A stretch of 63,507 bases of DNA, filler included, from Candidatus Woesearchaeota archaeon (GTDB taxonomy: Archaea; Nanobdellota; Nanobdellia; Woesearchaeales; WJIZ01), in NCBI GenBank assembly GCA_018221205.1. It is 7 parts of 7 records of this genome, joined end to end, with 100 filler letters (N's around TTAATTAATTAA, not from the genome) between each part and the next. Parts side by side here need not be neighbours in the genome. Positions count along the whole stretch, not along the records: positions 40,835 to 57,831 come from JAAOYF010000037.1; 6 more parts are not named here. One strand, 5' to 3'. Below, one piece after another: positions 43,140-57,831 of this stretch. The notes beneath the pieces are model-generated. The model was not told the origin of the DNA and made no database searches. It was given only the letters and a program-made list of their open reading frames with translations. A program made the position numbers and the translations under genes. Positions within the stretch are counted from its first letter, which is position 1. Every line of letters begins with the position of its first letter.

Positions 43140-43211
43140 TTAGGGATTACATCCACTGCTCATCACTCTCTTGATCTCTTCAACCATATCAGAAGCTAGA
43201 TAAGTAAACCC
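43140..43211 (-). pseudogene. Orphan duplicate of the nnrD 3' end
   Basis: GFTYLASDMVEEIKRVMSSGCNP* vs gene GYSYLASDMVTEIK; 34/42 nt. Confidence 0.8.
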
Positions 43212-43212
43212 T

Positions 43213-43271
43213 GAGCCTTTTCAAAAGCCTCGGGAAAGAGTACGACATCCTTACTTCGTTCGGAGTCGCAC
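43213..43271. repeat. Two-hairpin mini-element, homologous to 57390-57447
   Basis: 33/39 identity in the first part plus 12/12 TCGGAGTCGCAC tail. Confidence 0.8.
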
Positions 43272-44042
43272 AGACTTAATCTCTGTAACCATATCAGAAG
43301 CCAAATAACTGTACCCCTTATGCTTTTTCAAAAGAATATCTCCTATCAACCCATTATAATAGGCTGCTAACTTTGCTGCCTGTATATTATCCTTGGTCTG
43401 TGCATAGAAACCTGCAGCTAATCCTGCCAACACATCACCTGTTCCTGCTTTGGTCATTCCTGCATTGCCTGTCTTATTATAATAGGTCTTATTTCGGGTT
43501 ATGATCTCATCGATCTTTCCTTTTTTCACAATCACATTTTTTCTTATTGCTTTTTTCAGATCCATTCGGGTGTTTTTCAGCAGGATTTCCATCTCTTTCT
43601 TGTGGGGAGTGAGAATTGAGTTGTTGACATCTGTTAATGAAATGACCTTTAATGCATCTGCATCGATGACTAAAGGCTTTTTTGAATTCTTAACGAATTT
43701 TTTCACAAAAGAAGCTGCTTTTAATGAAATCCCATTGCCGATGAGGACAGTATTATATCGTTTTTCCATCTTCAATAATTCTTTTGCATGGGAAACTGAG
43801 AAATAATTTCCTTTCAGCTTTTTTACAACTAAATCAGGGGATAATGCATTGACTGCCCAGCCTACTTTTTCTGGAGCAGCGATAGTGACCCAATCTACAC
43901 CAGAACGTAATGCTGCCAATCCAGCTAATGCAACTGCACCGATATATTCTTTTGAGCCGCCGATAATAAGAACTCTTCCACTATCACCTTTTTTAGAAGA
44001 AGATTTTCTCTTCGGCAGAACTAATTTTGAGAGGAATTTCAT
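43251..44042 (-). CDS. nnrD: ADP-dependent NAD(P)H-hydrate dehydratase
   Basis: KGDSGRVLIIGGS, VIDADAL, LTPHKKE, GTGDVLAG. Confidence 0.93.
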   Translation of the reverse strand: MKFLSKLVLPKRKSSSKKGDSGRVLIIGGSKEYIGAVALAGLAALRSGVDWVTIAAPEKVGWAVNALSPDLVVKKLKGNYFSVSHAKELLKMEKRYNTVLIGNGISLKAASFVKKFVKNSKKPLVIDADALKVISLTDVNNSILTPHKKEMEILLKNTRMDLKKAIRKNVIVKKGKIDEIITRNKTYYNKTGNAGMTKAGTGDVLAGLAAGFYAQTKDNIQAAKLAAYYNGLIGDILLKKHKGYSYLASDMVTEIKSVRLRTK

Positions 44043-44635
44043 TTCGGTATTCCTATATCAACAACAATTGTCTTGTCCTTATACTTTTTCAGGCCTTTCT
44101 TCAATTCATGGAAGGTGATGATCATGTCCGCGTCAATGATTTTATCGACGACCTCTCCGGTATCTGCATTCAAACCAGTGGGAACATCGATGCTCGCGAC
44201 AAACTTTTTCTTTGCGTTGATCTGATCGACCACTGCTCCCAGCGGATATTTCAATTCACCGCCATAGCTCATGCCCAAAATAGCGTCGATGATGATATCA
44301 TAATCGTCAAAATTTACAAAATCAAGCGAAGTGAACTGTATGAGCTCATTGTTCTGGATCTTTTCAAAATTATGCTTTGCCTCTTCTTTGAATCTTGATT
44401 CATCACCCAAAAAAAGAACCTCTACTTCTGCTTTGTCAGCGAGATGACGCGCCACAACAAAACCATCTCCGCCGTTGTTGCCATGGTAGCAGACAATAAG
44501 AATACGTTTCCCTTTTGCTTTCTTTTCAAGAGCTTTCGCAATCTCCCTTCCGGCATTCTCCATCAATGTTATTTTTGATATTCCTTTCCCTACAGCCTTG
44601 TCTTCTAATGCTCGCATGTCTTCAACTGATATCAT
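44039..44635 (-). CDS. nnrE: NAD(P)H-hydrate epimerase
   Basis: LMENAG, GNNGGDG, SIDVPTG, VVDIGI. Confidence 0.93.
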   Translation of the reverse strand: MISVEDMRALEDKAVGKGISKITLMENAGREIAKALEKKAKGKRILIVCYHGNNGGDGFVVARHLADKAEVEVLFLGDESRFKEEAKHNFEKIQNNELIQFTSLDFVNFDDYDIIIDAILGMSYGGELKYPLGAVVDQINAKKKFVASIDVPTGLNADTGEVVDKIIDADMIITFHELKKGLKKYKDKTIVVDIGIPK

Positions 44636-44670
44636 TATGCCTCAAATGCGTTGTTTGTTTATAAACATTC

Positions 44671-45447
44671 TTATGCAAGAGAGATTTTCTCCATCTTTTC
44701 TCGTGCATCTTCATAATTCCTGAAACGTTTTGTCAACGCATCCACTTCTTTTTCTGCCATGAATCCAGAATCAGAAAGAAATTCAAAAAAATCTTTTTTT
44801 TCAGCATGTTCAATCCTTTTCTGCAACTTGTCATACGGATAATTCAATGCCGGCCTTATCACTTTCTTCTTCATCATCTCCAAAATGATCTTATTTGACC
44901 ACTCTGTTATGTGATCGTGCTGCACAGAGGCTAAAAAGGTATCGCCGAAGATTTCATAGAGCTGCTTGATCAACACTTCTTTATTCTTAAAGTCTAAGGT
45001 AGGAAGAATATCTTTGATCCTTCTGCATTTTCCGAACAACGAACCATGCTCTGAGCCGATGTTCAGGAAAGGAGAGCGGTTGAAAGGGAATAGATTACAG
45101 ACGAACGCACGTTCTTTTCCATAGATGGAGCATTTTCCCTCTTTTTTGAGGAATGGGCATGATCTTGCATTCATCTGATAGGTGACGATGATCAATGAAT
45201 TCGATCCAAGATCGAAAATTGCCCTTGAGGGGATGATCTTAGGATCGATACCGAGCTCTTTCGCATATGCCAAAAAACGTTTCGCTTCAAAATCCCATAA
45301 TGGAAAGGTCATGTCCTCGACCTTTGTCAATTGGATCAATGGCAGTTTACCATAACCGAACTCTTCGATGAATCTTTTCTCTTCTTCAGAAACAAAGCCC
45401 TGTATCAAAGAGCAGCATGTTCCGCAGGCAGCACATTCAAACTTCAT
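44671..45447 (-). CDS. YkgJ-family cysteine cluster protein
   Basis: FECAACGTCC, CPFL...CSIY...CNLFPF. Confidence 0.85.
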   Translation of the reverse strand: MKFECAACGTCCSLIQGFVSEEEKRFIEEFGYGKLPLIQLTKVEDMTFPLWDFEAKRFLAYAKELGIDPKIIPSRAIFDLGSNSLIIVTYQMNARSCPFLKKEGKCSIYGKERAFVCNLFPFNRSPFLNIGSEHGSLFGKCRRIKDILPTLDFKNKEVLIKQLYEIFGDTFLASVQHDHITEWSNKIILEMMKKKVIRPALNYPYDKLQKRIEHAEKKDFFEFLSDSGFMAEKEVDALTKRFRNYEDAREKMEKISLA

Positions 45448-45478
45448 AGAAAAAGAAAAATAAAAAGAATATATTAAT

Positions 45479-45679
45479 CTATTTCTTTTGCATCTCGACC
45501 TGGCATGTTTTACAGGTTCCCATGGCCAGCCCTGTTATTCCCATGAACAGGAATACGATTGTCCACCACTGAAGGCCCCAGAAATTCCAATGGCCTAAGT
45601 CTACTATCACATAGATGATACCCACAACCAATAGGAGGATTGAGCCCATCTTACTACATTTTGCGCATCCGAAACACAT
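45479..45679 (-). CDS. Small membrane protein with CxxC pairs
   Basis: CAKC...two TM helices...CKTC; GAGGT SD. Confidence 0.65.
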   Translation of the reverse strand: MCFGCAKCSKMGSILLLVVGIIYVIVDLGHWNFWGLQWWTIVFLFMGITGLAMGTCKTCQVEMQKK

Positions 45680-45784
45680 TATAAACTACCTCATCTCTTG
45701 TTTTATGTTTTCGATATTTAAAGTTTTGGGAAACCTTTTTGGAAACTTATTGTTTTCCCGCAAGCTTTATAAAGGCCTTCTTTA

Positions 45785-46300
45785 GTGATGGAAGTGATGG
45801 GGTCGCAGCATAAACAACAGCGCATAGGCATCTTTGTCGACGTACAGAACATGTATTATTCTGCAAAGCATCTCTATAATACGAAAGTCAACTTTGTTGA
45901 GATTCTGAAGATGGGTGTTGCTGGCAGACAATTAGTGAGGGCTATTGCCTACGTCATCAAGGCTGATTCGAATGAAGAGAGCAGCTTCTTCGGCGCATTA
46001 GATAAGATCGGCTTTGAGGTCAAGAGCAAAGATCTGCAAGTGTTCTATGGCGGCCATAAGAAAGGAGATTGGGATGTCGGCATTGCGATGGACATCATGA
46101 AATTAGCCTCTAAACTTGATGTCGTTGTTTTAGTCAGTGGAGACGGTGATTTTAAGGAATTATTGGAGCATGCTTCTGCATTAGGATGCAGAACTGAAGT
46201 CATTGCCTTCGGCAAGAGCGCATCCAGTAAATTGAAAGAGCAGGCAGATCTGTTCACTGATCTTGATAAGAACAAAAAGGTACTCAGGCGGAAAACATGA
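45785..46300 (+). CDS. NYN (LabA/DUF88) domain protein
   Basis: FVDVQN, KGDWDVGIAMD, SGDGDF. Confidence 0.92.
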   Translation: MMEVMGSQHKQQRIGIFVDVQNMYYSAKHLYNTKVNFVEILKMGVAGRQLVRAIAYVIKADSNEESSFFGALDKIGFEVKSKDLQVFYGGHKKGDWDVGIAMDIMKLASKLDVVVLVSGDGDFKELLEHASALGCRTEVIAFGKSASSKLKEQADLFTDLDKNKKVLRRKT

Positions 46301-46548
46301 GCGAGATGAATTTTTGCCCCCATTGCGAAGCTGCTACACATAAATTACTTCATTGCAAGGAAGATATCTTCTTCTGCAAAGCATGCAGCCGTTTTTTCAG
46401 ATTCGAATCCTTAGATCAAAAGTGTCCACGATGTACGGGCAGTCTGCGGAAAAGCGACTTTGACAGCCCTTCTAAGGGAGCAGTCTTCCTCTGCACCAAA
46501 TGCAAAAAGACTTGTACTACTCAAGATCTGTTTGAAGAGGAAAATTAA
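46297..46548 (+). CDS. Double zinc-ribbon protein
   Basis: Four CxxC pairs. Confidence 0.75.
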   Translation: MSEMNFCPHCEAATHKLLHCKEDIFFCKACSRFFRFESLDQKCPRCTGSLRKSDFDSPSKGAVFLCTKCKKTCTTQDLFEEEN

Positions 46549-46607
46549 TTACTTTTTGGTAGTAACAGATGGAAAGATTTATAAAGGGGTAATTTTTCTG
46601 TTTTTCT

Positions 46608-47243
46608 ATGATAGAATATATGGAATATACGTATATGTTAGATAATGCCCGCTTAGCTTTTGCAGGATTGCATGTGAATTCTGACAGGACTGCGAGGCTT
46701 GGCTATGCAGAAAATGAACGGAGATCATTGCAGGCGAGGCTAGAACCTAGAGGAGAGCTTGCTAATACGACTGATCATGATACTCTTGAGGATCTTGCAT
46801 ATCTGCAAGTCATGTCAGAGATGGTCGCTAAACTTAATTCTGGCATACCTGAAGAAGAGCTTTATGATAACTATGAGAGAATTTATGAGGAATTGACTGA
46901 ATCGTGCGAGATTCCTTTTGCCGCACGATTACTTGATTTTAATTATAGAATTAGAGTAGGGTATATTGATATGTGGAAAGACAATTTTGATGGGCATGTC
47001 AGCGATCATATGATTAACGAGCAATTTGTGCTTTCTCCTGATGATAGGGAATTTCTTGAGGTTTATGCACGGTTGGTGAAGGAATCCCTAGGGGTGCTGC
47101 ATAATCTGGATGTTGTGCATGAAAATGCAAAAGAAAGGAGTATTGAGATCCCTTCCTTTGGCAAAGATTTTAATACAGAAGAGAAGCGATTAATGGATAT
47201 GGATCATTTAGTAGGTGTGATGTTAAAAGATGGCATATCATAG
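46608..47243 (+). CDS. Hypothetical acidic protein
   Basis: ORF after a TATA box. Confidence 0.6.
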   Translation: MIEYMEYTYMLDNARLAFAGLHVNSDRTARLGYAENERRSLQARLEPRGELANTTDHDTLEDLAYLQVMSEMVAKLNSGIPEEELYDNYERIYEELTESCEIPFAARLLDFNYRIRVGYIDMWKDNFDGHVSDHMINEQFVLSPDDREFLEVYARLVKESLGVLHNLDVVHENAKERSIEIPSFGKDFNTEEKRLMDMDHLVGVMLKDGIS

Positions 47244-47604
47244 GCATGATATAGAGGAGGAACATTCTGGCTACCATAGCCATGGCGATGAAGGCCCGGG
47301 GCAGCCACAATATGGGAGCAATGAGCAGCAGAATGATGCTTCTTCCCCTGAGTACAATAAGCAGGTCGCGGAAGAAGAGGAAAAGGAATCGACTGAATTC
47401 GAGAAGCAGCTTGAAGATGAGCAGAAACCGAAATATAAAAAAGGGGAAGAGGAAGATGTTGTCAAGAAAGCTGCAGATGATGTGCATCAGCAAGTGCATG
47501 AGCAAGAGAAGCAAGAGCAGAGAAAGAAATCAAAAGGCAATATCGATGATGCAATCGAAAAAGCTATAAAAGAGGAGAAGGAAGTCATCCATATAGGTGA
47601 ATAA
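47230..47604 (+). CDS. Hypothetical low-complexity charged protein
   Basis: E/K/Q-rich; overlaps neighbours operon-style. Confidence 0.65.
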   Translation: MAYHRHDIEEEHSGYHSHGDEGPGQPQYGSNEQQNDASSPEYNKQVAEEEEKESTEFEKQLEDEQKPKYKKGEEEDVVKKAADDVHQQVHEQEKQEQRKKSKGNIDDAIEKAIKEEKEVIHIGE

Positions 47605-48071
47605 TGGGATACAAAAACACATCAAGCCTGGCATTTGAAGCAGAGATGCAAGTCTCAGGAGAGTATTCTATCTTTTCTCATGGAGATCTGGGAGCGTTCC
47701 ATAAATCAATCATGAATGCTGATCTGCCTGACTATACAAGGATGTTCTATCATCTTTCTCCAGAGGAACAGTTCGCTGAATTCAAATATGATAAGGTTTC
47801 GGTCGATTATGACAAAGGCCTGAAAGATATACAGGAAGGGATGAGAGGGCCTCCTTTAGAGGTCTATGTGCCTGCACCTATCCTCATGCCAGACGGAGCA
47901 GGAAAGCCCATCCCTGTCGAGATTTTGCCGAAAAAGACGATTGTCGATGAGATATTGAAGGCGCAAGCCGAACTTTTTGGGAAAAGCCGAGAGATTGTCT
48001 TTTCTGAAGAGCAGATCACTATCCTGAAGCACATCAGAAAAAGAGTGTTGAAACTATCTTCTAAAGAATAG
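47604..48071 (+). CDS. Hypothetical protein
   Basis: TAATG coupling with the upstream gene. Confidence 0.6.
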   Translation: MGYKNTSSLAFEAEMQVSGEYSIFSHGDLGAFHKSIMNADLPDYTRMFYHLSPEEQFAEFKYDKVSVDYDKGLKDIQEGMRGPPLEVYVPAPILMPDGAGKPIPVEILPKKTIVDEILKAQAELFGKSREIVFSEEQITILKHIRKRVLKLSSKE

Positions 48072-48107
48072 AAAGTAATATAAATCTTACTCTCTCGCAT
48101 TTTTCAG

Positions 48108-49379
48108 ATGTCCAGGCGGAATTACTTTTTCATTCTTTTACTCTTAGTGTCAGCTATCACTGTTTCTGCAGTCTCAGATGTAGAGATTGTCAAACTGGAT
48201 GATCAGGATAGTGAGATTTGGTCTAGAACCTATGGAGGAAGCAGTGATGATTACCCTTTCTCTGTCCAAGAGGTAAAAGACGGCTATGTTGTTGTGGGCT
48301 ATTCTGAGTCTTTTTCAGCCATGGGAGATATCTGGCTGCTTAAATTGGATCCTGCTGGACTATTGGAGTGGGACATGGTGTATGGGGGTGAGGATGTTGA
48401 TTTCGCTTACTCGATTGAGCAGACCTCAGACCAGGGATTCATCATCGGCGCAACAACGACTTCTTCAGGAGCAGGCAAGAATGATTATTATCTCATCAAG
48501 ACCGACAGTAATGGAGTCATTGAATGGGAAAAGACATTCGGTGGAGCAGAAGACGACACTGCTTTTTCAGCGCAGGAGACTGCGGAAGGAGATTTCATCA
48601 TCGTGGGCTATACTGAATCCTTCGGAGAGGATTTCTGGATTGTCCAGACAGATCCACAAGGAAATTTCAGATCAGAGACTTTTGGCGGCGATGCTGAGAC
48701 TGTTTCTGTTACCGAAACTGTCGATGGCGGCTTTGTCATTGCCGGCTATTCAGGAGACTATGGACAGGGTGTGAGAGATTTCTGGATCATCAATATCCAA
48801 GGAGTGTTCACGACGAGTATAGGGCCTGCCATCGAGAATGCACATAGCCTTCAAGCTACTGCTGATGGGGGTCAGATAGAAGCAAAGAGCACGTTAGCAG
48901 TAGGCGATCAGTTCACTATCATCAAATTGAAGAGCGGCTGCCAGCCCAATTGGCAGCTTACAGGAAGCTGGTCTGCATGCACTAATAATGTCCAATATCA
49001 GAATTATTATGATAAGAACAACTGTGCGGGCAGCACCGCACCTCTGCCTTTGTCGCAATCCTGCGGCACCAGTTCTGGTGGCAGCAGCAGCGGGGGAGGT
49101 GGAGGAGGAGGCAGCATTCCTTCATTCTTTATCGAGGAAGAAGAAATTGAGGGGCAAACACCTGTTGAACCTTTTGAGGAATTCGCTGCAGAAGAGACTG
49201 AAGAGATCCTGCCAGAGCCTGGAATTCGGGAAGACAGCGGCAGAGCACCACCCATTACCGGTCTGGCCATCTCTGGTGAGCCTGGAACTGGAGGAGGGGG
49301 TACGATAGTGAGCTTTCTTTTGAGTGTTGTTCTTCTTGGGCAGTTCTTCGGATACATAATCTTTAATAAATTCGCATGA
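48108..49379 (+). CDS. Secreted beta-propeller-repeat surface protein with C-terminal TM anchor
   Basis: Repeats WxxTyGGxxDD...DGGyvi.G; Gly/Ser linker; PITGLA then TM. Confidence 0.8.
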   Translation: MSRRNYFFILLLLVSAITVSAVSDVEIVKLDDQDSEIWSRTYGGSSDDYPFSVQEVKDGYVVVGYSESFSAMGDIWLLKLDPAGLLEWDMVYGGEDVDFAYSIEQTSDQGFIIGATTTSSGAGKNDYYLIKTDSNGVIEWEKTFGGAEDDTAFSAQETAEGDFIIVGYTESFGEDFWIVQTDPQGNFRSETFGGDAETVSVTETVDGGFVIAGYSGDYGQGVRDFWIINIQGVFTTSIGPAIENAHSLQATADGGQIEAKSTLAVGDQFTIIKLKSGCQPNWQLTGSWSACTNNVQYQNYYDKNNCAGSTAPLPLSQSCGTSSGGSSSGGGGGGGSIPSFFIEEEEIEGQTPVEPFEEFAAEETEEILPEPGIREDSGRAPPITGLAISGEPGTGGGGTIVSFLLSVVLLGQFFGYIIFNKFA

Positions 49380-49391
49380 TATCATGTTCTT

Positions 49392-49997
49392 ATGAAGCAG
49401 ATCATCATCATATTATTGCTCTTGCCGCTGCCGTTCTTTCTCGGTTCTTTATATATCTTCAATGATTCTTTCTGGGAGCATTCATTTGACAGATATGCTG
49501 TGCAGGACGAGTTTGATGCTGATATCAAAGATGCGCATGATACTATCATCCTCTATCTTCTCGATAAGAAGGACTCTTTGCCTGATTCCCTCTCTTATAA
49601 CCAAAAAGAGATTGTCCATATGGATGATGTGAAGGTTGTGTTTCAAGGCTTTCTTCTTGTTCTGAAAATCATCATCATTCTATTGGGGTTGTTCTTCATT
49701 TTTAATCAATCTTATAAGAATTATTCGGGTGCATTTTATCATGCTGGACTTATCTCTATAATCATCTTCGTCATCCTTGCTTTGCTCTTTGTGTTCTCAT
49801 TCGCATTCTCTTTCAGTTCTTTCCATACTCTCTTCTTTGCAGCAGGAAGCTGGGTCTTCTCTCCTGGAGATACTCTTGTTACCCTCTACCCCTCTGGATT
49901 ATTCGCTGATCTGTTCAGAGATGTCATGTTATTGACAGCATTTTATTCTTTGCTTTTCATGATTCCAAAAATTTATAAACAACATAGAGGTCAATAA
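49392..49997 (+). CDS. DUF1461/TIGR01906-like membrane protein
   Basis: EIVHMDDVK, FHTLFF..GSWVF, LVTLYP. Confidence 0.8.
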   Translation: MKQIIIILLLLPLPFFLGSLYIFNDSFWEHSFDRYAVQDEFDADIKDAHDTIILYLLDKKDSLPDSLSYNQKEIVHMDDVKVVFQGFLLVLKIIIILLGLFFIFNQSYKNYSGAFYHAGLISIIIFVILALLFVFSFAFSFSSFHTLFFAAGSWVFSPGDTLVTLYPSGLFADLFRDVMLLTAFYSLLFMIPKIYKQHRGQ

Positions 49998-50002
49998 AAC
50001 GC

Positions 50003-50158
50003 ATGGCAAGAAAACTCTTAATAGCAGCCAATTGGAAGATACATAACTGGTTACGCTCGGTTAACATGTCAGAAACGTGCTACGTTTCTGATCATGATCA
50101 GGAATCTTCGATTCCTGACACGCAATGGGGGTTTCGCTTCGCTCAAGCCCCCTGAAAA
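50003..50158 (+). mobile_element. Duplicated tpiA 5' end plus hairpin-rich insert
   Basis: 50003-50046 matches 50159-50202 at 38/44; three hairpins lie between the copies. Confidence 0.65.
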
Positions 50159-50899
50159 ATGGCAAGAAAACTACTCATAGCAGCAAACTGGAAGATGCAT
50201 AAGACCATTCCGGAAGCTGTTGATTTTGCGAAGAAGATCAAAGAGCTTAAGGCAGAGAGAGATATTCTTGTCTGTGCTCCTTTCACGTTGTTGCCGGCAG
50301 TTGCTCAGGAGCTGCAAGGCAGTTCTGTCGGATTCGGCGGCCAAAACATGCATTTCGAGGAAAAAGGAGCCTTTACTGGAGAGATATCTCCATTGATGCT
50401 GAATGAATTGAAATGCACTCACGTCATTATCGGCCATTCTGAAAGACGGCATGTCTTCGGAGAGGACAATGCACTGATCAATAAGAAGATCAAGTCTGCT
50501 TTAGCGCATAACCTTATCCCTGTCTTCTGTGTCGGTGAGAAACTTGAGGAGAGGGAAGCCGGAAAGACCCAAGATGTTGTCAAAGAACAGATTGATAAGG
50601 GATTGGAAGGGGTCGAGAATGTCGATAGTGTTGTTATTGCCTATGAGCCTGTATGGGCTATCGGCACTGGAAAAACAGCCACTCCAGACCAGGCCCAGGA
50701 AGTCCATGCTTTTATCAGGGAATTCATGACAGAGCTTTATTCTGACGATGCCGCTAATGAGCTAAGGATCCTTTATGGAGGAAGTGTCAAGCCAGCCAAT
50801 GTCAAAGAATTGATGAGTGAAAAGGATATTGACGGTGCTTTGGTCGGAGGAGCATCATTAGAATTCGATAGTTTTTCTCAGTTGGTCAATCCACAGTGA
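50159..50899 (+). CDS. tpiA: Triosephosphate isomerase (bacterial type)
   Basis: AANWKM, GHSERR, AYEPVWAIGTG, YGGSV, LVGGASL. Confidence 0.98.
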   Translation: MARKLLIAANWKMHKTIPEAVDFAKKIKELKAERDILVCAPFTLLPAVAQELQGSSVGFGGQNMHFEEKGAFTGEISPLMLNELKCTHVIIGHSERRHVFGEDNALINKKIKSALAHNLIPVFCVGEKLEEREAGKTQDVVKEQIDKGLEGVENVDSVVIAYEPVWAIGTGKTATPDQAQEVHAFIREFMTELYSDDAANELRILYGGSVKPANVKELMSEKDIDGALVGGASLEFDSFSQLVNPQ

Positions 50900-51434
50900 T
50901 GTATATCTTATGTGTTCTATCGTATTGATTTGGATCGGGCTGTCTATAGACCTTTAAGTCGTAGACATACGTACCGGACCTTGTTCCAGGCACCAATTCA
51001 AAACCAAAGCCGAATGTCTTCTCATCATTCTGTCTTATCATCTCTTCTCTTTTCCAGGGCATGACTTCAATGTTGTTCTCATAGAGGAGCTCTGTCGGTC
51101 CGATCTTCTGCAGGTTATCAGGGGTGATGTAGATCCCTTTGTCTAATTTCACAAGAAAATTTCCATCGCCTTCCATATTCAGCACCTTCACCCCAACAAT
51201 CTCGAATTTCTTCGGTTCCAGAATTACTCTGTCGTTGATGATGCATACCTTCTCATCGCTGCTGCAGCTCAATTCGGCGATCCTTTGGTCGATATCATCT
51301 AATGTAAGATCTCTCAGCTCTTGAGCGCTGCCCAATATATTGTAGATGAAGATGATGCCGAAAGAAAGGATGACTAAAGAGATGATGATAGTCACAATAA
51401 AATTAAGAGAAAGTTCTATGGCTGCCTTTTTCAT
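50886..51434 (-). CDS. Pilin-like protein with class III signal peptide
   Basis: MKKAA/IELSLNFIV followed by a hydrophobic helix. Confidence 0.7.
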   Translation of the reverse strand: MKKAAIELSLNFIVTIIISLVILSFGIIFIYNILGSAQELRDLTLDDIDQRIAELSCSSDEKVCIINDRVILEPKKFEIVGVKVLNMEGDGNFLVKLDKGIYITPDNLQKIGPTELLYENNIEVMPWKREEMIRQNDEKTFGFGFELVPGTRSGTYVYDLKVYRQPDPNQYDRTHKIYITVD

Positions 51435-51652
51435 CCTAGAATTTCGTATTCCTTGATGATGATCATGAGGAACAGTATCAGGACAATAGAACCTACGACA
51501 ATCCATGTCAGGCCGCCAGGGAAATCCCCTGAAAAGACCGTGTAGAGGCCATACACCATGATACCAAAACCGAGCCAGAGAAACTTGTCTAGCACAAGCT
51601 TCAAGATCTCGAATTCCTCTGCATGCGTCAGTCTTCTTTTCATTTTTACCAT
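51431..51652 (-). CDS. Small conserved membrane protein
   Basis: EEFEILKLVLDKFLWLG, two TM helices. Confidence 0.7.
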   Translation of the reverse strand: MVKMKRRLTHAEEFEILKLVLDKFLWLGFGIMVYGLYTVFSGDFPGGLTWIVVGSIVLILFLMIIIKEYEILG

Positions 51653-51653
51653 T

Positions 51654-52223
51654 TTAGATGAACTTCACAAAAAATGTCTTTGATGTATACTCTTCGTCAT
51701 CCAATGCTGAGTTGATGTCATCACCTTTATCCATGATCTTTATCTTGAACAGCTTTGTTCCAGTAGCAGTCCTATCTGCCTTCAATGTTATGCCGAAGAC
51801 ATTAGACTCGCCAGGTGCTAAGATCTGTGTTGTGGTATCCCAGAAAAATGCATAACCGGTTTCGGATGTACTCAATGAAGAGTCAGAAGGCCTATTGTCT
51901 TCTACATCATTCACAATCTCCTTCATCTCAATCTTAAAATTCAGTACATCTGCATCCGTGTTCTTCACACCTATAGCGATGATCTCTTCATCTCCACCTT
52001 CAATATCTATACGTTGGGAAGGAAAGGAAAGCTTCTTGTCTCCTCTTCTTAAGTCATCAAGGATCTGCTCTCGCATCTGGTCCTGGACAGAGCCTGTTGT
52101 GTCTGTTATGTCGCTGAACATGTTCCTGACAAAGCCCAGACCAAGACCCAATAAGGTCATAGCAAGAATAACAATGACAATAGCGTTAATAGAAAGCTCT
52201 AAAGCTGCCTTTTTATTCATCAT
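51654..52223 (-). CDS. Pilin-like protein with class III signal peptide
   Basis: KKAA/LELSINAIVIVILA. Confidence 0.72.
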   Translation of the reverse strand: MMNKKAALELSINAIVIVILAMTLLGLGLGFVRNMFSDITDTTGSVQDQMREQILDDLRRGDKKLSFPSQRIDIEGGDEEIIAIGVKNTDADVLNFKIEMKEIVNDVEDNRPSDSSLSTSETGYAFFWDTTTQILAPGESNVFGITLKADRTATGTKLFKIKIMDKGDDINSALDDEEYTSKTFFVKFI

Positions 52224-52309
52224 CTACACCTCTTTTTATCCTTATCTGAGCAAATTGGTTTATAAACTTTTCTACAATCTATTTAAAGAGAGGGCTACTT
52301 TCAATCAGG

Positions 52310-53173
52310 ATGACAAGTGAAGTCAATACCCGGAACGGTCTTCATTTTCTCGTTCAAGACCATCTTTCTACAAGTGCGTCTGGTGCCCATCATTTTCGAT
52401 TGATGGATCCAGATGGACATCATTATTTCGGAAAATTCCAGCCCGGTACTACTTTAGGTAAACTACGGTACCAGAATGAAACGATGGCTTTCACGCATGT
52501 ACAAGATGATGAACTAGAGGGAATTGTGGACTATGTTGATAGAGATGATGCTACTCATGGAGTAATCTTAGAATTAGTTGAAGGGACAGATCTTTATGCA
52601 GCCATTGAGAAGCTGCTTGCTCTTCCTGTTGAGGAGAAAATAGCACTCTTATCAACAGTTGCTCACCATCTTGAAGGGTTGCATTCTGGAAATATAGCAC
52701 ACGGGGATATCTCGCTGCGAAATGTTATGCTAAAGAAAAGCTATGAGAATGAACTTCATCAAGGAACACACAGAAGAATAACTTCTAAAGATGTCTTGCT
52801 TGTTGACCTTGCCCTAGCGAGCGTAAATAGTATTTCACCTTATTGGTTTTTTATCGAGCAGAACCATGGATTATCTGGATCATGGATTTATATGCCTCCA
52901 GAAATGCTCCATTCTAAAATGTCTTCTCCTGCTGGAGATATGTATTCCTTTGGCGTTCTTGCCTATATCTTGCTTTATGGCAAAGAACCATTCCCTATGG
53001 AATATGGTATCGATCATGTTGCTTATTTGGTGAAGAAATCTTATCATCTGCCTTCTCCGCCTCCTCTTGATTTTAATGGAGTAGAAGAACTTGTTTTTCA
53101 CCTGCTCAACCCAGAATCGCGACACCGGCCATCAGCTAGGGAAACGAAAGAGAAATTGTACGAGGCCTTATAG
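52310..53173 (+). CDS. Hanks-type Ser/Thr protein kinase
   Basis: HGDISLRNVM, YMPPE, DMYSFG, RPSA. Confidence 0.82.
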   Translation: MTSEVNTRNGLHFLVQDHLSTSASGAHHFRLMDPDGHHYFGKFQPGTTLGKLRYQNETMAFTHVQDDELEGIVDYVDRDDATHGVILELVEGTDLYAAIEKLLALPVEEKIALLSTVAHHLEGLHSGNIAHGDISLRNVMLKKSYENELHQGTHRRITSKDVLLVDLALASVNSISPYWFFIEQNHGLSGSWIYMPPEMLHSKMSSPAGDMYSFGVLAYILLYGKEPFPMEYGIDHVAYLVKKSYHLPSPPPLDFNGVEELVFHLLNPESRHRPSARETKEKLYEAL

Positions 53174-53689
53174 TTTAGATTTCTTTGCTTTGTCAGAGAT
53201 AATTGCTGAGTTTCCAGAAGGATCTTCTAATATAATCTTTGTAGGGTCTTTTCCCCAAAGAATCCGCATTATCTTCTTCAACTGGTTCTTGGCTTTCTTC
53301 TTGATGGCATCATCTTCTTCATTGTCTCTTGCAAACTCGATGGCCTTTCTTGCCCTTTCTAATACGCCTTCAATGTTTGTTATGAAGCCATTACCTACTT
53401 CACCGCCTTGCATGGTTATCAGATGAGGGATCTTCAGGGTGGCTTCTGCACTCTTCACTACCCGTATCTTCATATCTTCATCGCCTTTGATGTCGATGGT
53501 GAATTTTACAGGGTCGTGCCTTTCTTTCGCCTCAATATCTGCTTTATGATAGTGGCAGTTCGAGCAGTTCATCGAGAGCAGAAAGCAGGCTCCGAAGAAA
53601 GGGATATCATGTTCGTCTTCCATCAGCGTAAGAGTCTTCTTTCCACAGACCGAGCATGGCTGACCGTGAACAACGTTAGGAGCTTTCAT
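53168..53689 (-). CDS. ZPR1 zinc-finger protein
   Basis: CSVC, IPFFG, CSNC, ITNIEGVL, EDPSGNS. Confidence 0.92.
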   Translation of the reverse strand: MKAPNVVHGQPCSVCGKKTLTLMEDEHDIPFFGACFLLSMNCSNCHYHKADIEAKERHDPVKFTIDIKGDEDMKIRVVKSAEATLKIPHLITMQGGEVGNGFITNIEGVLERARKAIEFARDNEEDDAIKKKAKNQLKKIMRILWGKDPTKIILEDPSGNSAIISDKAKKSKL

Positions 53690-53728
53690 AAAATCAAAAA
53701 TGGAAGAAGGAGTTTAAATAGTTTATTG

Positions 53729-54154
53729 TCAATCCTGGAATTCAGTCACTTCAGAAACGTCTTCTTTTTTCTGCTCAGCTGCCTTGCCGCGATGGATATG
53801 GGCAAAGGCAGGAGTGGCTGCGATCCAATCATCTCCAAAGCCGGCTATGTCGCCGTCGATTGCGTCACAGGTCTTCTTGAGCTTGTTGATAGCCCGTTTC
53901 AATTCAACTAAATCCTTGTCTTTCAAGGTCTTGATATTGATCAATGCAATAGTATGGCCTTCTCTCAATGCATCGAGGATCGGTTTGATGTTCTCGAAAT
54001 CATCCAAAATGAAAGGTCTCACCAGAAACTTTGCTGATTTTTCGCTAGAGTCGGCATCTAACTGTACGTAGCCGTCATCGTGCGCTCCTTTCATAATCTC
54101 AGAACTCATATCATCACCAAACATCTTTTCCTTCATCTTTGAAAAAAAACCCAT
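53729..54154 (-). CDS. sepF: Archaeal SepF
   Basis: LREGHTIALINI, LKRAINKLK, GDIAG, IAATP. Confidence 0.85.
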   Translation of the reverse strand: MGFFSKMKEKMFGDDMSSEIMKGAHDDGYVQLDADSSEKSAKFLVRPFILDDFENIKPILDALREGHTIALINIKTLKDKDLVELKRAINKLKKTCDAIDGDIAGFGDDWIAATPAFAHIHRGKAAEQKKEDVSEVTEFQD

Positions 54155-54275
54155 TTTAATCCTCCTAGTACTACTATACACTCGGTATAAGAAAATACAA
54201 TAGTACCACTATTTAAAGTTTGTGTTCTAGGCGGAGATTCCATAACTTTTATAAAGGGCCTATTAATCCAAGAAA

Positions 54276-54566
54276 GTGATGAAAAGGATAGGCAGATCAC
54301 GAAGAAAGACACGTTCAACATACAGCAAGCACTTCAGAACGAAAGGGAAAATCTCTCTCACGAAGTACTTCCAGACTCTCAAGGAAGGGGATAAAGTACT
54401 GCTGCAAGTGGAACCTTCTATCCATAGCGGATTGTATGATCCCAAGTATATCGGTAAATCCGGTACGATCAAGCGAAGGAACGGCAGATGCTATGAAGTG
54501 ACGATCATGGACAGAAAGAAGGAAAAGCTTCTGATTGTCCATCCAGTCCATCTTAGGAGGCAATAA
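54276..54566 (+). CDS. rpl21e: 50S ribosomal protein L21e
   Basis: RRKTR, GDKV, GKSG, IVHPVHL. Confidence 0.93.
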   Translation: MMKRIGRSRRKTRSTYSKHFRTKGKISLTKYFQTLKEGDKVLLQVEPSIHSGLYDPKYIGKSGTIKRRNGRCYEVTIMDRKKEKLLIVHPVHLRRQ

Positions 54567-54567
54567 A

Positions 54568-54906
54568 ATGTCAGCTCCCAAAATCATAAAGGAACACCCT
54601 ATCAGCATGTCTGAACTCAAGACCGAGATTGATAAGATAAAGAAACGAGATAAGGAACTTGGCTTCAGAACAAACAGGACTGAAGAATACATCCACCAAT
54701 TCATCAAAGAAGACACTTCAAAACTTGTGGAATCCCTCAAGAAGCTGAACATCAGCAGGCTGAAGGATGAGCAGGTCATCAAAATAGTTGATTTATTGCC
54801 CAGGTCTGTCGAGGACCTGAAAGTTGTCCTTCATGGATATACTGTCACGGTCACTAAAGACAATATGAAGAAGATTGTTGATGAAGTGAATAAATTTCTA
54901 AAATGA
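54568..54906 (+). CDS. rpoF: RNA polymerase subunit F (Rpo4)
   Basis: Follows rpl21e; KIVDLLPRSVEDLK. Confidence 0.85.
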   Translation: MSAPKIIKEHPISMSELKTEIDKIKKRDKELGFRTNRTEEYIHQFIKEDTSKLVESLKKLNISRLKDEQVIKIVDLLPRSVEDLKVVLHGYTVTVTKDNMKKIVDEVNKFLK

Positions 54907-56042
54907 TTATTGGCACGATAAAAGAGGTCAAGGATAACGAGAATAGGGTAGGATTACTGCCTTCTTCTGTCAAGCTGCTTGTTGCGAATAAGCATGAAGT
55001 CTATGTCGAGAAGAATGCGGGCACAGGCACAGGCTTTTCTGATGGTGATTATGAGAAGGCCGGCGCCATCATCCTTGACAATGCTGTTGAGGTCGCAAAA
55101 AAGGCCGATATCCTGGTGAAGATCAAAGAGCCGATGCAAGAAGAGTTCACTATTCTCGAAGCATTGGCAGGGAAGACACTCTATACTTATCTACATCTTG
55201 CAGCTGCTCCAAAGGAATTGACTTTGGAACTCATAAAGCATAAGATTACTTCTATTGCCTATGAGACCATCGAAAAGAATGGACGGTTGCCTTGTCTGGC
55301 ACCGATGAGCAAGATAGCAGGCATCCTGGCTGTGCAATACTCTTCACAATACCTTCAGAAGAAGTATGGAGGAAGGGGGGTCTCGATGGGACATGTCAAA
55401 GGGGCAGACACTGCAAACGTCGTTGTCATCGGCGGCGGCGTTGTCGGAAAGAAGGCTGCTCTGACAGCCTGCGGTATGGGAGCTTCCGTAACAGTCTTTG
55501 AGATCAATGAAGAACGTGCACAATATGTGCAGGAAGAATGCGGCAAAGTGCTGGCTGGAAAGTTCTTCTCAAACCTTTCTGTCGAAACAGCCGAAGAGGA
55601 GAACCTTGTCAAAGCCATCAAGGAGGCAGATGTCTTGATCGGTGCAGTCCTTGTCAAAGGATCAAAGGCTCCCCGGATCATCACCAAGGAGATGATCGAT
55701 GTCATGCAGAAAGGTGCGGTTATTATCGATGTCGCGATCGATCAAGGAGGATGCATCTGGGGAAGCAAACCTACTTCTCATTCACAACCCACCTATGATT
55801 ATGAAGGAAAGATCTATTGCTGCATCACGAACATGCCTGGACAAGTGCCTTTACAGGCTACACAAGCACTGACCGCAACAACCATACCTTATCTGCTGCA
55901 GATGGCAAACAAGGGAATCGAAGAAACAGTAAAAGGAGATAGTGGATTTGCACAAGGATTGAATGTCTATCAAGGGAAGATAGTGTATAAAGGAGTTGCG
56001 GATGCTCTTGGATTGGATTATACTGAATTGAGATTTTCTTAG
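54903..56042 (+). CDS. ald: Alanine dehydrogenase (bacterial AlaDH/PNT family)
   Basis: KEVKDNENRV, YLHLAA, LAPMS, DVAIDQGG, NMPG. Confidence 0.92.
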   Translation: MIIGTIKEVKDNENRVGLLPSSVKLLVANKHEVYVEKNAGTGTGFSDGDYEKAGAIILDNAVEVAKKADILVKIKEPMQEEFTILEALAGKTLYTYLHLAAAPKELTLELIKHKITSIAYETIEKNGRLPCLAPMSKIAGILAVQYSSQYLQKKYGGRGVSMGHVKGADTANVVVIGGGVVGKKAALTACGMGASVTVFEINEERAQYVQEECGKVLAGKFFSNLSVETAEEENLVKAIKEADVLIGAVLVKGSKAPRIITKEMIDVMQKGAVIIDVAIDQGGCIWGSKPTSHSQPTYDYEGKIYCCITNMPGQVPLQATQALTATTIPYLLQMANKGIEETVKGDSGFAQGLNVYQGKIVYKGVADALGLDYTELRFS

Positions 56043-56098
56043 AAAGATTTAAAAATCAAGCTATTCACCTCAATCTTAAAGGGAGTGGTTATATTAGA

Positions 56099-56656
56099 AT
56101 GGAATCTACAAAAGAAGAGTATGCAATCGTCTTGGACTTTTTACCGAATGGATACCCATTCGATTCAAGACCAAGCCATCTGAAGAGTCCGATAGCTCAA
56201 GCTATAGGAAAGGATCGCTTTGTCATTCTCGAGCTTGTCCCGAAGAAAGAGATTCACCTGCAGCCGCACGAAGAGGTCTATATCGGCGAGGGCAAACGGG
56301 ATAAGGTGCACCATATCATCGGGAAGATCCCTGTTGACAAGCTGACACAGACTGCTAAATCTGAACTGAAGATCATCGTCGGCGAGGCCATCAAGCGCAA
56401 CCAGGATAGATTTATCGAGTTCTTCAACGAAGCCCAGCCCTTAAGCACCAGGATGCATCAGCTGGAGCTATTGCCTGGACTAGGCAAGAAGCATATGTGG
56501 GAAATCATCGAAGAGAGGAAAGGAGATCCGTTCAAGGATTTCGCTGACATGAAAAAAAGAGTCAAACTGATGCCTGACCCAGAGAAAGCTATCATGAAAA
56601 GAATTCTCAAGGAACTTGAGGGAAAAGAGAAACATAATCTATTCGTTGATTCGTGA
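56099..56656 (+). CDS. DUF655 nucleic-acid-binding protein
   Basis: VLDFLPNG, RMHQLELLPGLGKK. Confidence 0.92.
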   Translation: MESTKEEYAIVLDFLPNGYPFDSRPSHLKSPIAQAIGKDRFVILELVPKKEIHLQPHEEVYIGEGKRDKVHHIIGKIPVDKLTQTAKSELKIIVGEAIKRNQDRFIEFFNEAQPLSTRMHQLELLPGLGKKHMWEIIEERKGDPFKDFADMKKRVKLMPDPEKAIMKRILKELEGKEKHNLFVDS

Positions 56657-56694
56657 TCCTTTTCCAACAGATTTTTATATGAGCTATTTTTTAT

Positions 56695-57267
56695 GTGACC
56701 ATGATCCAAAAAATAAAAAACCTGGTAAATGTCAATGAGAAGATAACAGAGTTATCCAAAAATTTTGAAGAACATTCAACAATAGTCAATACATTCTCAT
56801 CTACTGTTCGAGCATTGCAGAATGAGATAGAAGGCCTGAAAATGTCTCAAGAGACGATGATCAGCGCCATGAACCAGGATGCGACTGCCTTGAAGGATCT
56901 GAGAGAGGATCTGAGAACCGAGATCAATGATTTCAAGATCATCAAATCCCGTGTCGAAAAGAAGATGATCGAGCTGTTCGAGGATGAGATCGGGAAGCAG
57001 CTCCAGCAACGGTTTGACAGGCTCGAGTACCAGATGAAGAGCTTTGACGGGCTCAATACCAAAGTACAAGCCATCTCCCAGCGGACTGTCGATCTGAGCA
57101 GGGAGATCGAGAAATTCACTTCTATCAGCAAGCACCTCAAAGAGGGAGATTTTGAACTGGTCAAATATGCTCAACATCTGCAGTCACGCGATCAGGAGAA
57201 GCTTGAATTGATGAGAAAGCTGGATACGATGGAAAGGCTTGTTTCTAAGATGAGACGACAGCGTTAG
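56695..57267 (+). CDS. Coiled-coil hypothetical protein
   Basis: Heptad-rich; C-terminal DQEKLELMRKLDTMERLVSK. Confidence 0.72.
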   Translation: MTMIQKIKNLVNVNEKITELSKNFEEHSTIVNTFSSTVRALQNEIEGLKMSQETMISAMNQDATALKDLREDLRTEINDFKIIKSRVEKKMIELFEDEIGKQLQQRFDRLEYQMKSFDGLNTKVQAISQRTVDLSREIEKFTSISKHLKEGDFELVKYAQHLQSRDQEKLELMRKLDTMERLVSKMRRQR

Positions 57268-57271
57268 TTTT

Positions 57272-57334
57272 GAGATTTTTGCAAAAATCTCGTAAAAAGC
57301 GGGCGACGTTCGGAGCAAAGCTCCTCAGTCCCCC
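57272..57334. repeat. Two-hairpin mini-element (divergent family member)
   Basis: Perfect palindrome GAGATTTTTGCAAAAATCTC, A-rich spacer, then CGAC...GGAGC-aaa-GCTCC...GTC. Confidence 0.6.
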
Positions 57335-57372
57335 GAGTTAACTTTTTAAAGCATCACTGATTTGAGACTTCT

Positions 57373-57460
57373 ATGGGCCTGTAGTTCAGGAGGTTTTTCA
57401 AAAACCTCGGAAAAGGGTGCGACATCCTCGTAAACTCGGAGTCGCACGTACTGCAGGGTC
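57373..57460. mobile_element. Duplicated tRNA 5' end plus two-hairpin mini-element
   Basis: ATGGGCCTGTAGTTCAG at 57373-57389 and 57461-57477; the insert is homologous to 43213-43271. Confidence 0.7.
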
Positions 57461-57462
57461 AT

Positions 57463-57559
57463 GGGCCTGTAGTTCAGTGGCTAGAACGTCGCCTCGACAT
57501 ATGGAGTCTTAGTTCGTTCGGAGTGGCGAAGGTCGCCGGTTCGAGTCCGGTCGGGCCCA
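57463..57559 (+). tRNA. tRNA-Val(GAC) with 24-nt BHB intron (57500-57523)
   Basis: Acceptor GGGCCTG/CGGGCCC, D stem GTTC/GAAC, anticodon stem TCGCC/GGCGA, T arm GCCGG-TTCGAGT-CCGGT; BHB central helix TCGA/TCGG. Confidence 0.88.
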
Positions 57560-57560
57560 T

Positions 57561-57750
57561 TTATTTCTTTATCAATCCCAAAAGGAACGTTATCACAAAT
57601 AAGATCAGAAATAGCCAATACTCCGGTTCTACAAGTCCTACTGCCAATAATGAATCAAGGGCAAGAAATCCAGAATATCCCATACCTATCACCGATATGA
57701 TTATCTGCACAACAGAGATTGTTCTTTTTTGACATAATATAGAATATAAT
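57561..57750 (-). pseudogene. 3' remnant of a membrane-protein gene abutting the IS end
   Basis: Frame open from the IS boundary: LYSILCQKRTISVVQIIISVIGMG...FLLGLIKK*. Confidence 0.45.
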
Positions 57751-57831
57751 ATGACCTCCTCCCCGACTTGAAAGTCGGGGTATCCGCTTAAGCTTCTGCG
57801 TGGTGTTGTTCTTGATTTACTATGTACTTGA
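57751..57831 (-). mobile_element. tnpA: IS200/IS605-family element end, copy 3
   Basis: Identical to copy 2 over the shared length. Confidence 0.85.

Follow-up and report, generated by a model that had tools for sequence, protein, structure and literature searches.

A 63,507-nucleotide stretch of DNA (the window), made of several joined contigs of the Candidatus Woesearchaeota archaeon assembly GCA_018221205.1, carries three loci at which a non-coding hairpin insert lies between two copies of one gene end, belonging to nnrD, tpiA and a tRNA-Val gene. The source genome (G000) is a 1.28-Mb archaeal metagenome assembly in 74 contigs, 94.8% complete, and all three loci are on one contig, G000:C12. 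Window positions count along the whole joined stretch; labels beginning with G, C and L denote the genomes, contigs and loci of the analysis. The hairpins form a real family that is widespread in one archaeal order, and their inserts are, as an earlier note on this DNA had proposed, non-autonomous cassettes. They share a layout and a polarity, are enriched beside duplicated gene ends, and separate gene copies that differ mostly at synonymous sites; LAGLIDADG proteins are encoded by cassettes of like layout, one of which occupies a gene end that bears hairpin cassettes in other genomes. In our judgement the chances are about even that the hairpin cassettes spread by homing, as enzyme-less passengers of LAGLIDADG endonucleases.

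The layout of gene terminus copy, hairpin insert and second gene terminus copy, described earlier for the three loci, was found at each of them. On the minus strand, nnrD, encoding NAD(P)H-hydrate dehydratase (PF01256), occupies 43251..44042, and the 3' segment now used, the incoming one, is at 43275..43316. The displaced (cut-off) 3' end, 43140..43211 on the same strand, keeps its own stop; its duplicated part, 43170-43211, is 81% identical to 43275-43316, with two synonymous and three conservative or other replacements between them. An A2-type hairpin element on the plus strand (43213..43275; hairpin 1 at 43213-43231, hairpin 2 at approximately 43240-43271) separates the two. The earlier note held that the gene stays intact each time; the carried end does keep the genes whole, but the last 7 codons of the working nnrD, together with its stop (43251-43253, minus strand), lie in the insert. 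At tpiA, on the plus strand, a cut-off 5' end (50003..50046, frame read by eye) is followed by a W-type element (50046..50154), which contains a nested 54-base hairpin pair (50064-50117) absent from other copies, and by the working gene (PF00121, 50159..50899). The first part of the latter, 50159-50202, is the carried copy, 86% identical to 50003-50046 and differing in four synonymous codons and one replacement. The frame of the tpiA stub stays open through the insert, with a stop at 50153-50155, three bases before the working start (by eye, and at tpiA alone); such spacing would permit translational coupling.

At the third locus, also on the plus strand, a cut-off tRNA-Val 5' end of 17 bases (57373..57389) precedes an A2-type element (57390..57447), a 13-base linker (57448-57460) and the working tRNA-Val(GAC) gene (57463..57559). 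The 17 bases are identical to those of the working copy (17/17, 57461-57477). The gene has a 24-base intron at 37/38 (57500-57523), whose limits and bulge-helix-bulge were assigned by eye; the Val(GAC) reading is based on this bulge-helix-bulge and on likeness to a Val(TAC) gene on C63. ARAGORN reported only 21 tRNA genes in G000 and miscalled the one at 57463-57559, and in an Rfam scan tRNA was the only match above threshold. The nnrD and tRNA inserts are homologous, as had been claimed (E 8e-7), and the tip of the tRNA-Val intron resembles nnrD hairpin 2 in 18 of 20 bases (E 0.21). The imperfect hairpins are under pairing constraint, as seen from their folding z-scores and covariation: DNA-folding z-scores of the tpiA and tRNA inserts were -5.2 to -6.4, and those of the nnrD insert -2.75 (minus strand) and 0.1 (plus strand).

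The inserts are built of common modules present at about 45 distinct places in G000, each element comprising 55-125 bases of non-coding hairpin. A flanking duplication of 13-44 bases accompanied 15 of the 37 scorable elements of three types in G000, compared with 17 of 2000 random non-coding anchors (p 1.4e-19), so that the expected association of hairpins with duplicated gene ends is strong. Outside G000, duplications of 13-67 bases flanked 23 of 54 elements, five bacterial chance matches having been removed ahead of this and the junction count. The targets include gh57 (twice in a row), a DRG GTPase gene, cdc48, thrS, ABCE1, apt, panD, guaA and many tRNA genes, and tandem units of an element plus an end occur at L021 and L248. 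As judged by eye, the element always has the cut-off copy against its 5' end and the working gene at its 3' side (L014 is ambiguous), the elements being sense at gene starts and antisense at gene ends. No conserved target word was found at 38 junctions, 35 of which have 0-6 unmatched bases. The A1 module was found in 13 of the 301 genomes of the order and at 44 loci in the genome collection (5 of them the bacterial chance matches), and the A2 module in 7 of the 301, including all four of the same family; named records with the repeat motif are nearly all Woesearchaeota or Nanoarchaeota, or bins placed in the same order. The A1 pattern had no match in viral contigs. An unpublished genome, G117, is counted in tallies of this kind and supports no other statement here.

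The compensatory change noticed earlier in hairpin 1 is real and family-wide: among 12 variants, pair 5-15 is U-A in five, A-U in four and C-G in three, and the covariation score was reached by none of 500 shuffles, a figure that is not a probability, as kin share changes. The three minus-strand GA motifs of the earlier note are present as written, but the tpiA stem is mismatched, and the tip differs in many members of the family. Predicted bulge-helix-bulge tRNA introns, which would be spliced, are built from these modules as well. Sense-strand tRNA introns of this kind account for approximately 16 of 48 loci in one set and 3 of 11 in another, mostly in the T loop (by eye). This form has an extra 3' half that closes the bulge-helix-bulge, and the duplicated-end form is without a pairing 3' half; predicted folds of the T-loop forms L069, L085 and L067 have a four-pair helix between two 3-base bulges, the other folds being less clean.

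The duplicated ends behave as two alleles rather than as a gene and its decaying copy. At 13 loci in protein genes, 28 codons differ synonymously between the copies and 6 by replacement; two mis-framed rows (L254 and L078) were left out, and with them the ratio is 29:10. If an end were copied and then drifted, with the stub mutating freely and the gene keeping silent changes only, a synonymous fraction of about 0.33 would be expected, and in simulations at four rates, 3000 for each, even 29:10 was never reached. The thrS copies differ 8:0 in 12 codons, and 5' ends as a class have 24 synonymous changes and 1 replacement. The cdc48 copies have different second and third residues, two codons that lie outside the count, and different ribosome-binding sites. 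At nnrD it is the displaced end, more than the working one, that agrees with G006 and G003, and therefore the working end is the incoming allele, which bears out the proposal that a gene end can come from another lineage; the displacement of a native end could be recognised at nnrD only, the cdc48 starts of relatives being too varied to tell. Several loci are perfect copies (35/35 at C1:59562, for example), which fits close donors or first insertions. Taken together, the synonymous bias, which had been suspected from the first three loci as unlike a plain target-site duplication and holds in this larger sample, and the nnrD comparison indicate that a foreign gene end comes in with the element and displaces the resident one.

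The earlier note missed both the tRNA-intron form and a set of LAGLIDADG cassettes with the same layout. G000 contains 10 LAGLIDADG matches from 9 free-standing genes, one of them split over C38 and C74; both catalytic motifs are present in 8 aligned proteins, and I-DmoI is among the solved relatives. Six of the nine genes stand between diverged copies of a gene end, as found by score for five (tRNA-Ala 5', metK 5', ppsA 3', tRNA-Met 3' and tRNA-Ile 3') and by eye for one (tRNA-Arg 3'). The family occurs in 22 of 61 genomes of the order, mostly abutting tRNA ends, and a cut-off copy was scored beside 4 of 26 LAGLIDADG genes against 0 of 26 controls. When proteins encoded within 1.5 kb of 99 regions were clustered, LAGLIDADG was the only recurring enzyme family, with 3 genes. 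The two kinds of cassette share a target at the 5' end of ABCE1, which carries hairpin cassettes of two different types in G003 and G004, and which in G040 is arranged as a cut-off start, a LAGLIDADG gene and a working start, with nearly all shared codons respelled; this 1.5-kb endonuclease cassette has the same synonymous bias.

Two further observations concern the endonuclease genes themselves. The upstream DNA of 24 of 41 of them, from many families, has a common word of 8 bases, exact or nearly so, which precedes a TATA-like box by about 13-16 bases (examples are L088, L091, L092, L093, L117 and L210), and several of the genes have another hairpin in common there. A shared regulator, or an RNA element of the cassettes, is suggested by this pattern. 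At L208, L210 and L212 the working tRNA-Met gene beside the endonuclease gene has a related intron in its T loop, exactly where the junction falls, as would be expected if introns protect the site.

From these results a route for the spread of the cassettes may be proposed. DNA of a related cell, with a hairpin element beside the end of the same gene, would enter the recipient, and a free-standing LAGLIDADG endonuclease acting in trans would cut the recipient gene about 10-60 bases from its end. The gene side of the break would be repaired on the donor, so that the donor gene end, linker and element are copied; we infer donor-templated repair here because the allele is foreign and the linkers are unlike the recipient flank. 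The other side would be joined to the 5' end of the element without homology, so that the recipient end remains as the cut-off copy, next to 0-6 unmatched bases; such junctions are those seen in the genomes, and the chemistry of the joining is deduced. The recoded end, or a spliced intron in a tRNA loop, would then spoil the nuclease site and favour the occupied allele. The lack of a target consensus and the few unmatched junction bases fit break repair. More tentatively, as a possibility that we hold to be less probable than not by some way, the elements would be enzyme-less homing cassettes of DPANN archaea that use almost any core gene end as a homology arm and ride free-standing endonucleases between species, a cassette persisting as a spliced tRNA intron or else by supplying a recoded gene end of foreign origin.

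A number of observations weigh against homing of this kind. About 60% of the elements have no duplication, and near-identical copies stand at unrelated sites, so a separate route to new sites is needed. In the sampled genomes, no LAGLIDADG gene was found within 1.5 kb of tpiA, nnrD or cdc48 (0/30 loci each), and the single case in 30 loci of ABCE1 concerns a gene picked after two hairpin cases there; a protein-level repeat test gave zeros that are weak, since it missed nnrD of G000, the short ABCE1 stub of G003 and the G040 stub beyond the locus edge. Of the element-bearing genomes, G303, G304 and G306 had no match to the endonuclease profile, and G138 had none to PF14528. Compared with the upstream DNA of 41 endonuclease genes (mean z 0.48, 6/41 above 2), the modules show no clear homology, and the elements therefore seem not to be simple deletion derivatives of the endonuclease cassettes; end sequence shared with those cassettes amounts to one weak blast match among 26 and one by-eye likeness at C38. 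Endonuclease cassettes occur in both orientations (ppsA, L067) and the elements in one, which would not be expected from plain homing. The constant polarity is the chief difficulty; it also fits a nick at the element end, and it keeps alive the two routes considered next. Dozens of different targets would need many or lax nucleases.

The first of these routes, which we regard as rather unlikely, would start with nicks made by an HUH (Y1) transposase in single-stranded DNA, at the element 5' end and at a loose downstream site; the element, with its piece of gene end, would then be pasted into the matching end in another cell. Strand-specific nicking would explain the fixed polarity, and TnpA(REP) is described as cutting many loose sites around its hairpin and as able to build tandem copies (PMC3333891), with which the tandem units at L021 and L248 agree; nested hairpins insert without duplication. 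G000 also has an IS200-type element with an unassembled body; its left end is matched 11 times and its right end 12 times at contig ends, in the window at 68-165 (left) and 57747-57831 (right). A relative of this element on G003:C110 encodes a 138-aa TnpA. The right end of the G000 element has a weak match to HgcC, and a word of 11 bases in the left end recurs in two A2 elements. Y1 genes, which are common, are present in 7 of 10 element-bearing genomes. However, a fixed T/A word precedes the insertions of the resident IS200, whereas the 38 junctions have no conserved word, and none of 15 Y1 genes in related genomes was flanked by A1, A2 or W modules; the route also leaves the same layout of the endonuclease genes unexplained. 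The assembly of G000, in which IS interiors are unassembled, contained no match to a Y1 transposase, a reverse transcriptase, a tyrosine integrase (PF00589) or GIY-YIG. The resident Y1 TnpA named earlier as a candidate is thus not among the assembled genes, although IS200-type ends lie at contig breaks, and movement of a folded single-stranded intermediate by such an enzyme is so far not supported. Neither do the elements resemble attL/attR integrative elements, given the lack of a PF00589 match in that assembly and the many unrelated targets.

Somewhat less probable still is an RNA route, in which excised or read-through tRNA-intron RNA carrying the gene end would be reverse-transcribed from a break in the matching gene, and the far end joined with added bases. 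The modules do form predicted bulge-helix-bulge introns, an RNA 5' end would give the fixed polarity, and unmatched junction bases and the absence of a target word are in accordance with it. For the tRNA introns of Thermoproteales a transposition model has reportedly been put forward. Against this, a genome that is 94.8% complete yielded no reverse transcriptase match, the cases at gene 3' ends would need antisense RNA, and a foreign allele would need RNA from another cell.

Ordinary insertion with a long, variable target-site duplication, the spare copy of which then drifts, is improbable as an account of the family. Many duplications are perfect or nearly so, as at C1:59562, some include non-coding flank, and the one at C28:37880 is of an operator-like word and not of a gene; yet the 28:6 ratio, the 8:0 of thrS, the cdc48 codons and ribosome-binding sites and the nnrD comparison reject it as the whole story. 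Long target duplication may describe the first arrival at a new site, not the diverged loci. It is very improbable that both copies are under protein-level selection, by ribosome hopping or mRNA splicing of the insert, and accumulate synonymous changes in place: the bias is indeed strongest at 5' ends (24:1) and the tpiA stub frame runs to the working start, but such selection is inapplicable to the 3'-end, antisense and tRNA cases and to the 1.5-kb ABCE1 endonuclease cassette with the same bias. Strain-collapse misassembly, conceivable in a metagenome assembly of 74 contigs that breaks at repeats, can practically be dismissed, since both tpiA junctions, the locus at which unitigs were checked, are covered by two overlapping unitigs (49431-50147 and 50118-50270) with 0 differences (run X1, which may be the source sample), and layout and polarity recur in many unrelated assemblies. 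In run X1 no joint skipping the tpiA cassette was seen, the sole joint removing the nested 54 bases and coming from the C34 copy. A close relative for comparison with an empty site was not found among GTDB relatives and 80 retained metagenome loci (23 of 64 parts scanned), triosephosphate isomerase (TIM) identity being at most 59%. Apparent duplications at 7 of 78 TIM loci proved to be ribosome-binding-site look-alikes 1.2-1.4 kb away.

The cassettes may be compared with several known systems. Closest to the homing reading are the endonuclease insertions that carry an alternative C-terminus in Allomyces atp6 and Ophiostoma rps3 (PMC4019555), in which, as that paper describes them, the insert lies between a displaced native end and a carried, diverged end and the gene is kept whole; there too the proteins correspond, the sister cassettes described here encoding two-motif LAGLIDADG proteins. 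Unlike those fungal genes, the mini-elements are archaeal hairpins of 55-125 bases, use both 5' and 3' ends, and target tRNAs and dozens of protein genes. As they encode no nuclease, which the sister cassettes alone do, they are not members of the end-carrying endonuclease group. Mobility without an endonuclease has parallels in the Pyrobaculum hairpin intron that is co-converted by a neighbouring endonuclease (Pog.S1205/S1213, PMC4496867) and in the collaborative and trans homing of phage T4 (PMC2988022); a free-standing phage endonuclease acting in trans is also described as leading to tandem amplification by recombination (PMC13096335). Like the hairpin introns of Thermoproteales rRNA and the T4 cases, the present inserts are hairpins without an endonuclease, have a bulge-helix-bulge in the intron form and are predicted to spread with a nuclease encoded elsewhere; unlike the Thermoproteales introns, their modules also occur outside introns, at either gene end, with a duplicated end replacing splicing.

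With REP/BIME, CGTC palindromes and IS200/IS605 ends, as reported in PMC3733652, PMC3333891 and PMC6006769, the family shares dispersed, modular, nested hairpins beside genes and tandem arrays, and the CGTC repeats are likewise without a known transposase. However, IS200/IS605 elements in these accounts have a fixed target word, of 4-5 bases, and no target repeats, whereas the cassettes have no consensus at 38 junctions and have foreign gene-end duplications of 13-67 bases, so that they fail two defining tests of IS200/REP elements. The mitochondrial double-hairpin elements of Allomyces (Paquin et al. 2000, cited in PMC3787672) are likewise mobile two-hairpin units in a genome that also has end-carrying endonuclease cassettes, and the passage citing them mentions no carried gene end. 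Searches of the literature within reach, with few subscription journals, returned no account of the hairpin family or of the DPANN cassettes; the allele test, the polarity rule, the controlled counts and the shared ABCE1 target are new.

These results are evidence, at the level of sequence, that DNA passes between lineages of uncultured DPANN archaea that already differ in their codons, and that not even genes of glycolysis and translation are spared the replacement of their ends. If the enzyme-less homing reading is true, the termini of core genes would be swapped across species repeatedly. REP-like repeats, non-canonical tRNA introns and free-standing homing endonucleases, commonly considered separately, are here joined in a single testable system, for which an enzyme and a target can be named: the LAGLIDADG protein of G040 and the ABCE1 start. 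A DNA-level route would also be offered for the spread of tRNA introns between tRNA genes. In practical terms, the stubs and the T-loop introns mislead start-codon and tRNA annotation.

Several minor features of the window and of G000 remain to be described. An A1-type element on the plus strand (57272..57334) lies directly after the stop of the ORF 56695-57267; it had been grouped with the duplicated-end inserts and is a member of the hairpin family (DNA-folding z-scores -2.8 and -3.5) but has no duplicated end. The right end of the unassembled, multi-copy IS200-type element (57747..57831, strand not assigned) lies nearby, as a neighbour that need not belong to the cassettes. In tRNA-Val(GAC), position 33 (window 57495) is C, where tRNAs usually have U. 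A second hairpin family, whose units begin with a TGTC tag, inserts in other elements between A and C, with no duplication and often as dimers; in the window it is the pair at 50064-50117, and elsewhere in G000 it occurs on C5, C15, C44, C50, C52 and C63. TGTC, the tag of these nested units, is listed among the variants of CGTC. At G000:C44:17644-17757 a tRNA-Leu gene has a perfect internal duplication of 35 bases, without a hairpin element. One element variant lies ahead of three related small helix-turn-helix genes (C28:37880-38003, C28:48308 and C1:56349), and at C28:37880 the duplicated sequence is a 19-base operator-like word rather than a gene end.

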